Positions 9,004-15,706 of a stretch of 36,722 nt of DNA are shown here, one piece after another. A program made the translations under genes and the position numbers. Location: IMG/VR virus record IMGVR_UViG_3300020045_017575, positions 1 through 36,722 of that record; one strand, 5' to 3'. Below the pieces are notes generated by a model, which saw only the letters and a list, made by a program, of their open reading frames with translations, searched no databases and had not been told where the DNA came from. Each line of letters begins with the position of its first letter. Position 1 is the stretch's first letter. This DNA is from a virus. Its lineage: Duplodnaviria; Caudoviricetes.

Positions 9004-9504
9004 ATGAAAAAACTATTAATTTTAGCGATTTTACTTTTAACTAATAATAATTTTTGTAGCTTCTTTGGCCCTAATGATAATAAATCAGAAAAAGCTATTG
9101 AAGTTTTACAGCAGGTAATTAAGACTGATGGATCGGGTGTGCCATTTTCTCCAGAGATAATAAATTACTGTAAAAATACAGCACCAAGTTCTTTCACTCC
9201 TGAAATGGGCGCTATTGGATTAGCTTTTGTTGGTATTGGTGCTACTTACGCATTTGTGAGTAATATGATGGCGTGGAAACCTGTTGTTAATACAGTAGTT
9301 TCTACTACAAAACAGGTAGTAGATGTTATAGATAAAAATACAAAAGATCCTGCTAGTCCTCGCACAAAACGAGCTAAAGAAGAAGTTGATACTTTATCAA
9401 TACAGCAATTGCAATTGCTAGCGGTAACAGAAGAGCAATCTGCGCCAGGAAAGACGTATTGGAAAAATAGATATGAACAAGCTTTAAAAAATCAATTAAA
9501 ATAA
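9004..9504 (+). CDS. Secreted/membrane protein, paralog family member 1
   Basis: Signal peptide, TM, conserved C-terminal IDKN..P.SPRTKRAK.EV..LS.QQLQLLA.TEEQS. Confidence 0.85.
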   Translation: MKKLLILAILLLTNNNFCSFFGPNDNKSEKAIEVLQQVIKTDGSGVPFSPEIINYCKNTAPSSFTPEMGAIGLAFVGIGATYAFVSNMMAWKPVVNTVVSTTKQVVDVIDKNTKDPASPRTKRAKEEVDTLSIQQLQLLAVTEEQSAPGKTYWKNRYEQALKNQLK

Positions 9505-9524
9505 CTTTTCATTCAGGAACATAG

Positions 9525-10046
9525 ATGAAAAAACTATTACTCTTAAGCACTCTATTTGTATCGTCTTCTTATAGTATGAAACCAGTCATAGATACCGCAC
9601 ATCTTATAGTAACTAGTGACATGTTTAAAAAATTTGCAAGTGATCCAGAAGCTTGGGATGCCTTTAATAAAAGTACTACCGCAACTCTTCATGCGATAGA
9701 ATCTGCCAAGAAGGTTGGTGCTATTGAAGCACTTGAAAGTCATTCTTATACATGGATGGGTATTATAGGAGGCGCGGCAGCTTCTCTTTTTGGTTGGTAT
9801 ACCGTAGCTGAGACAGCAACTAACACTGCTAAAACAGCTGTTGATACTGCTAATGTAACAGCTAAGATTATCGATAAGAATACCCAACCTCCTACTAGTC
9901 CGCGAACAAAAAGAGCTAAGGAAGAGGTTGATACATTATCTCTTCAGCAGCTTCAGTTATTAGCAGCAACAGAAGAGCAATCTGCGCCAGGAAAGACTTA
10001 TTGGAAAAACAAATACGAGAAAGCTTTAAAAAATCAGCCAAAATAA
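9525..10046 (+). CDS. Secreted/membrane protein, paralog family member 2
   Basis: Same architecture and near-identical C-terminal domain. Confidence 0.85.
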   Translation: MKKLLLLSTLFVSSSYSMKPVIDTAHLIVTSDMFKKFASDPEAWDAFNKSTTATLHAIESAKKVGAIEALESHSYTWMGIIGGAAASLFGWYTVAETATNTAKTAVDTANVTAKIIDKNTQPPTSPRTKRAKEEVDTLSLQQLQLLAATEEQSAPGKTYWKNKYEKALKNQPK

Positions 10047-10082
10047 ACTTTCGTTAAAGCATAAAATTAAAGGAGAGATAGT

Positions 10083-10586
10083 ATGAGTAATCACCTGAAG
10101 CAAATTTTTTTTATAATTATTTTATCATCGAGTACATTGATTAATGGTATGTTTGATACTGAGTTAATGAAGTATAGTGTGGATGCAATGAAACATATTG
10201 TTAGAAATCCAGACATTGCACTTCAAACCACCGATCCTTTTTCTCCTGCTTTTGTAAATTCTATGCTCCAAGAGAGATCTAGTTGGAGTTATACATTTCA
10301 AGCTGTTGGAGTATCTATTGCGGCGGCCACAGCTTTTGTTGTTAGTTTATGGCCATGGAAATCGGTGGTTGAAACAACGGTATCAACTGCTAAGAAGTTA
10401 GTTGATACTATAGATAAAAACATACAACCACCAACTAGCCCAAGAACTAAGAGGGCTAAGCAAGAAGTTAATAATTTATCTATACAGCAGTTACAACTAT
10501 TGGCACTTACTGAAGAACAATCTAATCCAAGCAGCACCTATTTTAGAAATAAATACCAGGAAAAGATTGATAATAAGGTAAAATAA
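10083..10586 (+). CDS. Secreted/membrane protein, paralog family member 3
   Basis: Same architecture and C-terminal domain; AAGGAG SD. Confidence 0.85.
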   Translation: MSNHLKQIFFIIILSSSTLINGMFDTELMKYSVDAMKHIVRNPDIALQTTDPFSPAFVNSMLQERSSWSYTFQAVGVSIAAATAFVVSLWPWKSVVETTVSTAKKLVDTIDKNIQPPTSPRTKRAKQEVNNLSIQQLQLLALTEEQSNPSSTYFRNKYQEKIDNKVK

Positions 10587-10618: not shown

Positions 10619-10655
10619 AAAAATAGCCCTAGTACGTACTAGGGCTATTTTTTTT
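10619..10655 (+). terminator. Perfect 34-bp palindrome / bidirectional terminator
   Basis: AAAAATAGCCCTAGTAC|GTACTAGGGCTATTTTT plus further Ts. Confidence 0.8.
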
Positions 10656-10734: not shown

Positions 10735-11166
10735 ATGAAGTATTTGATTAGAGTGCTTGTATTATGTTTGTTCATTATTTTTCCAGTGAATAGCTTTACC
10801 GAATGTTTTCTTATTGATTTAAGAAGTAGAATTTCTGCATTTTTTAATCAGAATGAAGTGACCTTGCCGAAGAAAAAGGTTAGTAACTTTAAAGAAATGC
10901 ACGAAAAAATTATGAACTATCCTATGTCCCATGTATTAGCTCGCTATAAAAAAGACTTTAAAGTCTCTGATGAATTTGCTCGCATCCACGAAAGAGAATT
11001 GAAGCGCTATTTTATTATGTGCGGTAGTTATCCTAATGAGTCATTAGATATGTGGAGCCCTGAGGTTGATAACTTATGGCACACCTTTATTTTATACACC
11101 AAAGATTATAAGAAGTTTTGTGAAGAAACATTCGGTTACTTTTTACATCATTGTCCAACGGAGTAG
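10735..11166 (+). CDS. Exported GRDP-like (DUF1399/PF07173-like) domain protein, C-terminally short
   Basis: ELKRYF...SPEVDNLWHTFILYTKDYKKFCEETFGYFLHHCP signature; N-terminal hydrophobic signal; AAGGAG SD. Confidence 0.8.
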   Translation: MKYLIRVLVLCLFIIFPVNSFTECFLIDLRSRISAFFNQNEVTLPKKKVSNFKEMHEKIMNYPMSHVLARYKKDFKVSDEFARIHERELKRYFIMCGSYPNESLDMWSPEVDNLWHTFILYTKDYKKFCEETFGYFLHHCPTE

Positions 11167-11173
11167 AGATATT

Positions 11174-11395
11174 ATGAAAAAGAATTTATTTATTTTTTGT
11201 ACCGTCATTTCATCTTTAAGTGCTTTTGCAAGCGAAGAACCAAAAAGTAAAAAAGAACTATTTTTAGAAAAATATAAAGTTTTATTTAAGGAGTCAGCGC
11301 CAACTGATATTTGGACTAACGAAGAAGAAAAATGTTGGACTTGCACAAGTAATTGTAAGGGTGTTCTTAATTGCAGTAGAATAGGCGGATGCTAA
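11174..11395 (+). CDS. Secreted Cys-rich peptide 1 (putative precursor)
   Basis: Signal peptide ending AFA, motif FLEKYKVLFKESAPTDIWT, tail with 5 Cys. Confidence 0.8.
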   Translation: MKKNLFIFCTVISSLSAFASEEPKSKKELFLEKYKVLFKESAPTDIWTNEEEKCWTCTSNCKGVLNCSRIGGC

Positions 11396-11405
11396 GGTAA
11401 TATAT

Positions 11406-11678
11406 ATGAAAACAATCGCGATTGTTCTTTTTCTTATTTTTTTAGGATTGCAAAATTTAAATGCTCAAAAGGATAAAGATTCATTTATTGAGAAGTATGA
11501 ATCTTTATTTAACGATGCAATTCCTAAAGATATTTGGACTTTGTTGCAGGATGATATCGCTTGTGTTTCAGTATCGTGTAGCCCTAAATGTAAAGCGGTT
11601 CCCTTTAATCCTAAAAGATATAATGATTCCTTATGTCATTCCCGTTGTAAAAATCCATGCCAAATGGTACCTGAATAG
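11406..11678 (+). CDS. Secreted Cys-rich peptide 2 (putative precursor)
   Basis: Signal peptide ending LNA, motif FIEKYESLFNDAIPKDIWT, tail with 6 Cys. Confidence 0.8.
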   Translation: MKTIAIVLFLIFLGLQNLNAQKDKDSFIEKYESLFNDAIPKDIWTLLQDDIACVSVSCSPKCKAVPFNPKRYNDSLCHSRCKNPCQMVPE

Positions 11679-11700
11679 GTGTTAAATTAAAGGATTTTCT

Positions 11701-12018
11701 ATGAAAAAGTTTATGTCGGTAGCAATGGTATCACTATCCATGTTTACCTTTTCCGTTATTAATTCTTCTGGTGAGTCATTTATGAAAAAGTACGAGGAAT
11801 TATTTAATGAACCGATTCCTTTAAGTATATGGACCTTGGTTTCACAGGGGATAACTTGCAGTAGTCATCCAGACCCAGGTATTCCTACATGTGCAACACC
11901 TCATTATAAAGGGTTAACTTGTCGACAATGTAATAAGCCGTCATGGAATAATCAATGTTCTTCATCGCCAGCCACTTGCCTATCTACCTCATGTCATACA
12001 GATCATGAAAGAAGTTAG
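11701..12018 (+). CDS. Secreted Cys-rich peptide 3 (putative precursor)
   Basis: Signal peptide, motif FMKKYEELFNEPIPLSIWT, tail with 7 Cys. Confidence 0.8.
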   Translation: MKKFMSVAMVSLSMFTFSVINSSGESFMKKYEELFNEPIPLSIWTLVSQGITCSSHPDPGIPTCATPHYKGLTCRQCNKPSWNNQCSSSPATCLSTSCHTDHERS

Positions 12019-12117: not shown

Positions 12118-12420
12118 ATGAGGCTTATTGTTTTATTTTTTTTATTATCAACATCTTTTTGTGCACCTATATTTTCATCAATAGAGAAAGATACCTATTG
12201 TGTACAGTTGACAACGATATCCCAAAAATTTTCCTCGTTAGAGGGCGTTACTATTTATGAAGGTTGTTCAAATAATATATATGTATTATTTAAGTATCTA
12301 GATGAAAAATATCTTTTTTATAGTTTTCACACTAACGAATGCGCTGTCATAAGATTATATCTTATCAAAGATAATGGAGAATGGATTGAGCACTGTTGGC
12401 TATCAGATACAGAAGCATAA
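12118..12420 (+). CDS. Accessory secreted protein
   Basis: MRLIVLFFLLSTSFCA signal-like start; GGAG upstream. Confidence 0.6.
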   Translation: MRLIVLFFLLSTSFCAPIFSSIEKDTYCVQLTTISQKFSSLEGVTIYEGCSNNIYVLFKYLDEKYLFYSFHTNECAVIRLYLIKDNGEWIEHCWLSDTEA

Positions 12421-14038: not shown

Positions 14039-14719
14039 TTATTTTCTTGAAAACATCTTAGGAAAGTTATTGTTTATTATTCTTTGTAGGCTTGGTCTAT
14101 TCCACGGTTTATTTCTATAAAACAAACCTAATCGGTTTAACTTTTCAGCCACTTTAAATTCAGACATCTTTGCGCGATATTTCTTTATTCTTTCTAATAT
14201 ATTTTGTTCATGCTTATCTATTTCTAAATGGATGCCATCTTCGTGTAGTCTTTTTCCAAAAGGAACCTTGCCGAGAAATTCATTCCGCTCTCTTTTGATC
14301 TTCATCGCAGCCTTTATACGCATTGATATTACAATTCTTTCATGTTCGCTAAAGATATCGATCATTCGTCTGAGTAAAAAAGAATTAGCCTGATCCTCAA
14401 CATCTGTTCCTTCTCCAGAGGTAGATATGATAATTGCTCCCTTTTTATGCATATGCTTTTCAAAGCAAATAACTAAATGTATATCACGAGCAATGCGATC
14501 TCTTTTTTGTACAACAACAAAGTCGCCCTTTTTTACTTCATTAAATAAGTCGCTTAATGCTTCTCTCTTTTCAGTCTTACCACTTACTCCTTCATCAATG
14601 AAAAATTTATACACTTCCATACCATTTTTCTTTGCATAGTCTTCAATTGCTGACTTTTGCACCTCAATACCATTGCTTTGCTGGTCGGTGCTAACTCTTA
14701 TATACGCTAATAGACGCAC
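14039..14719 (-). CDS. Serine recombinase (resolvase catalytic domain plus short recombinase-type C-terminal domain)
   Basis: YIRVSTDQQ catalytic Ser, DEGVSGK, DRIARD, EHERIVISMRIK, GKVPFG, VAEKLNRLG...W. Confidence 0.92.
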   Translation of the reverse strand: MRLLAYIRVSTDQQSNGIEVQKSAIEDYAKKNGMEVYKFFIDEGVSGKTEKREALSDLFNEVKKGDFVVVQKRDRIARDIHLVICFEKHMHKKGAIIISTSGEGTDVEDQANSFLLRRMIDIFSEHERIVISMRIKAAMKIKRERNEFLGKVPFGKRLHEDGIHLEIDKHEQNILERIKKYRAKMSEFKVAEKLNRLGLFYRNKPWNRPSLQRIINNNFPKMFSRK

Positions 14720-15469: not shown

Positions 15470-15706
15470 AAACAACATGTCCTGTATAAATCAGTCCTAA
15501 TCGACTTGGAAGCCGAAGTGGCATAGAGCTAACTGGTGACAAGGGCCAAGTATATTATTTATCATAATATACGGGCTGAACGACTTAAGCGGACAGATAT
15601 GCTAGAAATAGCATAATGCGAAAGTCTGAACACTGCGGATAACGTAGTGAGGGAAATTCGAAGCAGTTTCCCCGCCTAGAAATAGGTCACAAAAGTAACA
15701 GAATTG
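15470..15706 (+). mobile_element. Group I self-splicing intron, 237 nt, no ORF
   Basis: P1 CAGGAU/GUCCUG with U.G at the splice site, P7 GACUU/AAGUC, P8 UAUGCUA-GAAA-UAGCAUA, P9 hairpins, terminal G; removal joins the exons in frame. Confidence 0.88.

Follow-up and report, generated by a model that had tools for sequence, protein, structure and literature searches.

Why would a phage encode a conserved domain that stops short of its last segment and follow it directly with three genes for Cys-rich peptides? The question is raised by a cassette in a 36,722-base virus record, analyzed whole (the window; CheckV, 100% complete). A preliminary description, drawn from the sequence alone, saw in it a four-gene cassette behind a palindromic hairpin and a domain split between its genes. 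The features are as follows.

10619..10652, plus strand: palindromic hairpin with a U tail (15 pairs, -20.5 kcal/mol, z -5.5)
10735..11166, plus strand: gene 1, 143 amino acids (aa), hydrophobic N-terminus and tail-less PF27765 core (residues about 52-141)
11174..11395, plus strand: gene 2, 73 aa, signal-like N-terminus, motif, and 26-residue peptide core with 5 Cys
11261..11317, plus strand: predicted docking motif of gene 2, residues 30-48 (pattern match)
11406..11678, plus strand: gene 3, 90 aa, signal-like N-terminus, motif, and 46-residue peptide core with 6 Cys
11484..11540, plus strand: predicted docking motif of gene 3, residues 27-45 (pattern match)
11701..12018, plus strand: gene 4, 105 aa, signal-like N-terminus, motif, and 61-residue peptide core with 7 Cys
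11779..11835, plus strand: predicted docking motif of gene 4, residues 27-45 (pattern match)

The anatomy first described is borne out. All four open reading frames (ORFs) lie on the plus strand, each with a purine-rich, ribosome-binding-like stretch 5' of it, and 0 of 200 shuffles reach the folding score of the hairpin. This element is absent from the list produced by a consensus terminator scan; it is likely an intrinsic terminator dividing the cassette from an upstream cluster of three paralogs, and no hairpin above chance was found immediately downstream of gene 4. The upstream paralogs (9004-10586) are tandem genes without a family match; their N-termini are signal-like, and they have a C-terminal segment in common. 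One has a counterpart in phage L018 at 79% identity, and there too it lies directly upstream of the core gene. Within the cassette, every N-terminus is basic and then hydrophobic (best Kyte-Doolittle 10-mers of 3.7, 2.3, 3.7, and 1.8 for genes 1 to 4), and signal-like N-termini recur in 15 of 15 aligned motif peptides; judged from such sequence features, all four products are likely exported, presumably by the Sec route. The signature reported for gene 1 is present, with the stop two residues past HHCP, the 19-residue peptide pattern matches exactly in all three peptides, and their cores hold the 5, 6, and 7 Cys originally counted. These cores differ from one another within the cassette; that of gene 3 is not unique, having a homolog in a related phage (L019:648-917). 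As a sole query, gene 3 matched itself only. Scans of Pfam, PHROGs, and NCBIfam gave no family name for any of the four genes, and no RNA holder was listed.

The split is not a read error, because a contig from an independent run (X2, 11094-11275, with 1 other letter in 182) spans the stop of gene 1 and the start of gene 2. A second independent contig covers 11161-11312, beginning just before that stop.

Gene 1 belongs to PF27765 (UCP032817-like, GRDP-fold), an assignment taken from precomputed annotation, which also places PF27765 on 6 of 6 close homologs; the PF27765 model was not in the Pfam copy that was scanned. Among Atlas feature hits for gene 1, 26 of 30 fall in the PF27765-only set (structure TM 0.89), and an Atlas search that skipped PF27765 returned no usable match. 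PF07173, the family first proposed as a check, did not match gene 1 (no family at E up to 10) or any of 105 homologs at E up to 0.1 (25 of 26 families listed), so that the earlier family name has to be replaced. The predicted folds of the two families are nevertheless related: Atlas clusters mix both, and a model of the fused form has matches among giant-virus GRDP-like proteins (E 1.2e-5, TM 0.58, with predicted models on both sides). The model of gene 1 itself is a confident helical domain (pLDDT 90-98 over residues 51-130). No PDB match to the domain was found by sequence, using the family profile, or by Foldseek; VIA-align of gene 1 gave common helical matches only, and the completed, full-length fold was compared by Foldseek only. 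A missing structural match does not prove a new fold.

The family profile covers 6,502 clusters at 50% identity, of which the best 150 were examined, and the sample of homologs is therefore skewed to close relatives. In most of these homologs, HHxP is followed by a linker, a helix of the form FxxxYxxxF, a proline, a tryptophan, and a tail. This helix-P-W segment is present in cis in 177 of 230 tree rows, whereas gene 1 ends at residue 143 without it. Invariant residues in gene 1 are E88, D112, W115, H116, T122, Y125, C129, H138, H139, and P141; D112 and all those listed after it are nearly invariant in short and fused forms alike, with D112, H116, H138, and H139 retained in 29 to 30 of 30 short cores and in 170 to 175 of 177 fused cores. 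A first scan of viral sequences with a close alignment gave no matches, and a second found 2 divergent loci; alignments of the peptides and of full-length proteins were too variable for pattern scans.

The segment that gene 1 lacks is found in the three peptides. A profile built from the tails of 115 full-length homologs scores them at 27.3, 17.3, and 16.8 bits, scores that 0 of 1000 shuffles per peptide reach (best, 5.2), and a profile of the region after HHxP recovers all three, with E values from 4e-6 to 0.004, in a set of 12,848 open frames. At the level of sequence, this tail-only comparison shows the peptide motif to be the C-terminal segment of full-length PF27765 homologs, as the split-domain claim had anticipated. 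The closest fused relative, a "Candidatus Babeliales" protein (L011:4923-5477), has both this helix and a Cys tail on a single chain, and its model gives the helix (residues 121-140) a pLDDT of 95-97 and the Cys tail (residues 151-169) a pLDDT of 53-58.

Whether the separated pieces could rejoin was addressed with a complex model of core residues 48-143, peptide 2 (residues 20-64), and Zn. The complex scored 0.80, versus 0.02 for the best of three controls; a mark of 0.80 is reached by 116 of 157 solved complexes and by 2 of 215 mismatched pairs, a calibration that is rough here (own alignments, Zn included). Contact agreement between runs was at least 72%, and the partner pLDDT was at least 71. 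The predicted interface places F30, Y34, L37, F38, I46, and W47 of peptide 2 on H85, E88, R91, I94, M95, and residues 104-112 of the core, with R91, I94, and M95 contacting Y34, L37, and F38, and with E88, S108, and V111 contacting I46 and W47; it also includes peptide residues 52-54, which hold the first Cys, and D112, H139, and P141 of the core. On this model, which agrees with the complex foreseen for gene 1 and its peptides, the motif peptide very probably docks onto the gene 1 core. No solved homolog was found whose structure the prediction could simply have reproduced, but the model may rebuild the fused fold from coevolution, since both alignments derive from one family. Docking explains the conservation of E88 and R91. 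Most other invariant residues have no docking role in the model, and H116 and H138 are not among its confidently touching residues.

The arrangement recurs. Each of the 12 further short-core genes of the clade whose flanks could be read adjoins a motif ORF (L018/L019, L020, L021, L022 twice, L023, L024, L027, L028, L029 twice, and L100), as a neighborhood search had been expected to reveal. L018 and L019 are one phage, identical over a 498-base overlap and counted once; L020 equals L099 (genome G092), and L100 is in genome G238. The count excludes an incomplete second copy where L027 ends, as well as L066 and L079, whose sequences break off within the gene. The motif ORF lies upstream of the core at three cassettes (both in L022 and that in L100). 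Two peptides were read by eye: the second one in L022, in which the Trp is missing, and the one in L023, whose record contains a frameshift. One core is accompanied by two or three peptides in the window, L019, L020, and the second L029 cassette, which fits reuse of one core. Across 147 loci scanned by pattern, with 9,623 open frames in all, free ORFs with the motif and at least 3 Cys occur only at short-core loci, apart from a remote copy (L134 in G238) and two false rows, a shadow frame (L085) and a divergent fused protein (L178). The remote copy (L134:1291-1722) is an orphan: it combines the motif with a Cys-rich peptide, has a long extension at its N-terminus, and stands about 95 kb away from the sole core gene found in G238. 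As an exception to the pairing, a divergent short core outside the clade (L097:4147-4686, also L098) lies antisense between the terminase and portal genes of a related phage; it has a small Cys tail in cis, with no docking motif or motif peptide nearby.

In the phylum of "Ca. Babeliales" genome G001, which we take to be Babelota (GTDB), the domain occurs in 22 of 261 genomes, and the 28 matches comprise 2 short, 25 fused, and 1 other long type. Within Patescibacteria, no free motif peptide was present in 30 loci from 30 of 401 genomes (7 further matches fell outside the sample). A FastTree phylogeny, built from 90 columns of 230 cores with 8 fragments removed, leaves 103 of its 227 forks open; it joins 29 of 30 short cores and 2 fused ones in one 31-row group (SH support, 95). 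The short-core clade occurs in Babelota genomes and their phages. The tree is consistent with a single origin of the split, which, as far as sequences tell, is old and recurrent. Compared with phage L019, the gene 1 core is 81% identical (pN 0.10, pS 0.81) and the peptide pairs are 32-36% identical; these sequence comparisons show a core under purifying selection and widely diverging peptides. Fused proteins in Babelota vary in other ways. In one subfamily (L103-L116) the chain ends a few residues past the motif with one Cys or none, and in most members a His stands directly before the motif P-I-W. Tandem arrays of fused paralogs with different tails occur in G178 (four paralogs; L102, L120, L124, and L125) and G105 (two; L117 and L121), and would represent another route to core diversity.

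The Cys residues of tails and peptide cores are not randomly spaced. Among 174 fused tails parsed from 177 rows, the first 60 residues hold at least 3 Cys in 92, one in 25, and none in 38. The fused tails contain 111 CxxC, versus 39 expected, and 83 CxxxC, versus 33 expected, and the split cores contain 18 CxxxC, versus 5.8 expected. Tails and cores both avoid CC, and the parity of Cys is random (odd counts in 42 of 88 fused tails and 7 of 14 split cores). With spacing of this kind and random parity, disulfide pairing is a poorer fit than metal ligation or chemistry directed at Cys. The layout of a RiPP-type precursor, a conserved leader followed by a variable core, is seen in genes 2 to 4.

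We tentatively propose, at somewhat short of an even chance, that the predicted metal site of the split PF27765 core matures docked peptide cores into metal-binding peptides. The invariant Asp/His set, the spacing and parity of Cys, and the RiPP enzymes that neighbor some fused homologs favor this reading. Gene 1 would supply the tail-less core, and genes 2 to 4 would each supply the missing last helix together with a different Cys-rich peptide. Following the model with peptide 2, the helix of each peptide would dock in a groove of the core and complete the fold. This would bring the Cys-rich part next to the predicted Asp/His metal site (D112/H116/H138/H139), where a metal-dependent change at Cys would turn the peptide core into a metal-binding peptide. 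One reusable core would serve several peptides, as accessory phage cargo that may help a Babelota host cope with metal stress inside its protist. The metal site is inferred from conservation and from DxxxH spacing within one helix, D112 and H116 being one turn apart on helix 109-120 of the gene 1 model. Against the proposal, the His set is retained though 38 of the 174 fused tails have no Cys in the first 60 residues and 25 have one, and split peptides show no fixed spacing between motif Trp and first Cys (2 to 13). A broader version, in which PF27765/GRDP is a self-processing metalloenzyme fold and the basis of a new ribosomal peptide class, is doubtful: the fused form would modify its own tail, and the split form would be switched on by the helix of its substrate leader, one enzyme maturing swappable exported peptides.

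Much of this evidence could also be accommodated without catalysis. The core could bind metallothionein-like tails without modifying them, as a scaffold or metallochaperone, and the heterodimer could buffer Cu or Zn outside the cytoplasm. The docking model serves this arrangement equally, selected CxxC and CxxxC spacing with random Cys parity is what metal ligands would show, and no other tailoring enzyme was found in the window or seen beside split loci. We nevertheless regard it as possible rather than likely, in that several peptides per core and the remote G238 orphan suit a reusable core over a 1:1 scaffold, and some fused homologs adjoin RiPP enzymes.

Those enzymes bear on a further alternative, in which the completed domain is a structured leader or adaptor that only presents the tail to a GT4 glycosyltransferase, B12 radical SAM enzyme, YcaO, methyltransferase, or GNAT, the phage borrowing the enzymes of its host. 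For fused homologs outside Babelota, 11 of 85 loci have a member of one GT4 family (profile built from 4 of the 11) as a neighbor of the domain; in P0142 the two are fused. The RiPP radical SAM family TIGR03975 scores above cutoff beside such homologs at L016 and L050, as does a SagD-type YcaO at L043, and a LanC-like protein is present at one locus; many other fused homologs adjoin housekeeping genes (132 neighbors of 39 loci scanned). Fusions containing the domain involve GT4, methyltransferase, cupin, FAD-oxidase, and GNAT partners and so fit an adaptor as well as a catalyst. In P0018, a GNAT acetyltransferase precedes a short core of the split clade on one chain. Fused PF27765 with GT4, sometimes with TIGR03975 or cupin, forms a recurring, apparently undescribed RiPP-like cluster that includes direct fusions (L012, L014-L016, L031, L036, L050, L067, L071, L077, and L079; P0142, P0054, and P0108).

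The RiPP-like reading of the preliminary description therefore holds in part: RiPP enzymes do occur beside some fused homologs, but no tailoring enzyme was found among 45 window proteins scanned or beside split cassettes. Five domain-carrying Babelota genomes (two of them split, and possibly incomplete) gave 0 of 5 for MNIO (PF05114), a search whose control matched in Caulobacter; 0 of 5 for the GT4 family, in a single-protein query without a positive control; and 0 of 5 for TIGR03975 above cutoff. TIGR04222, which may be linked to the PF27765 domain, matched neither in five genomes nor in controls, so that this search is uninformative. Because no tailoring partner was found in the window, and no MNIO, GT4 of that family, or TIGR03975 in those possibly incomplete genomes, gene 1 is the likeliest maturing agent, if the peptides are matured. 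A pure adaptor is unlikely on these grounds, and it would also leave four invariant Asp/His unexplained and place four exported-looking products away from cytoplasmic enzymes.

The setting of the cassette speaks to what its products may be for. The window encodes a terminase, a P22-like portal, and major head and tail proteins, and portal homologs occur in 4 of 261 genomes of the G001 phylum (three at 49-50% identity), from which we infer that the host is likely a Babelota bacterium. The available text of PMC12172432 describes Babelota as strictly intracellular in protists. The cassette has the portal region on one side and a conserved gene at 12374 on the other, and what lies between these varies: in six related phage loci with enough flank, the slot holds other genes or nothing extra. 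The domain appears in 1 of 9 related phage records, all of them fragments, and there it lies elsewhere than the slot. In another related phage (L004:4754-5641), this slot contains a gene for a 295-residue protein with 17 Cys.

Two features lie further along the window. The major head gene has a 237-base insertion (15470-15706), absent in L002, L003, and L005 and apparently present in L004. The insertion is preceded by T and has G as its last base, and none of 100 shuffles folds as well; it is likely a small, ORF-less group I intron, although Rfam returned no group I intron match. A serine resolvase/invertase gene (14039-14719, minus strand) lies antisense between a putative scaffold gene and the head gene.

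This setting, with fast-changing peptide cores in a variable phage slot and signal-like N-termini on 15 of 15 aligned peptides, would also suit secreted disulfide-rich effectors or antimicrobial peptides, in which case the core would serve specifically to help them fold or to anchor them for display. As far as the available text of each source goes, the likely hosts live inside protist cells (PMC12172432) and have genes for components of type II secretion (PMC4776705). Half of the split cores have an odd Cys count, however, and only 36 of 113 fused homologs have a hydrophobic N-terminus; because similar tails occur on the majority that lack one, disulfide formation was probably not what the tails originally served, and we consider effectors quite improbable. 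Still further from probability, and already largely refuted, is decay or artefact, in which the pieces would be non-functional duplicates left when a fused gene was interrupted by a nonsense mutation or a read error, as the frameshifted L023 peptide and remnants in L029 might suggest, but independent contigs cover the stop and the sequence beyond it, the peptides have their own signal-like starts, their order is reversed at three cassettes, and the split persists across the clade at 37-81% identity under purifying selection.

If true, the self-processing reading would also be the first to assign a biochemical function to the eukaryotic GRDP/DUF1399 domain. The family numbers 6,502 clusters, with a related fold in giant viruses and GRDP-like proteins, yet no assigned activity or solved structure was found for it. 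The split form parts the presumed catalyst from its presumed substrate, and three natural substrates within 1.3 kb permit a direct functional test. A leader that completes the fold of its own processing domain would be an unusual mode of recognition and would provide a short, portable docking tag. The window itself is a phage-borne cassette with three different peptide cores per domain, in which the peptide set has changed in a close relative; a phage that likely infects protist-parasitic Babelota thus carries a variable cassette of peptides predicted to be exported.

The closest known relatives are the fused PF27765 proteins, which share with the cassette the core domain, its invariant residues, the helix-P-W segment, and a Cys-rich tail. 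Here, the last helix and tail are instead separate genes, three per core, with signal-like N-termini. No characterized PF27765 member was found, and full-text searches, which covered literature outside subscription journals and bioRxiv supplements, returned no description of the bacterial family or its split. The available text of PMC12452194 does not name PF27765, although its "adjamnio-I" family may overlap it. The PF07173 GRDP-like/DUF1399 proteins (plant AtGRDP1/2) have a related predicted fold without a PF07173 sequence match here; the available text of PMC4299439 describes plant GRDP proteins as large, with a domain of unknown function.

In organization, the cassette most recalls other pathways that exist both fused and split. 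Burpitide pathways (BURP-domain cyclases, e.g., ArbB2/ArbA2) use a His-rich metal domain that is fused to its substrate or split from it and acts via a recognition sequence, according to the available text of PMC12186524 and PMC10107690, and the likeness, by analogy, lies in this fused-or-split logic. The cassette differs in being bacterial or phage-borne rather than from plants, in having Cys-rich rather than aromatic cores, and in using a recognition segment that is a piece of the domain's own fold; gene 1 has no Pfam match to BURP, the family profile has no PDB sequence match, and the Foldseek and VIA-align comparisons turned up no BURP fold. Split borosins, in which an enzyme-fused precursor also exists split (10.1101/2021.12.24.474128, in its available text), involve an unrelated domain, and the cassette has no methyltransferase. 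Bufferins, in the available text of PMC11626156, are Cys-containing peptides with Sec signals that chelate copper once modified, and TIGR04222 proteins have Cys/Gly/Ser-rich tails in that of PMC12452194. The likeness to bufferins and other MNIO precursors would be that of a Sec-signal, Cys-rich peptide, which the hydrophobicity pattern of the cassette fits; none of the four genes matches the bufferin or TIGR04222 family, and MNIO and DUF2063 are absent from the window. The cassette is predicted to work like the BURP pathways and may end in bufferin-like products while being a member of neither. It is a new, split version of a catalogued but uncharacterized family, and proven chemistry would make it a new class.
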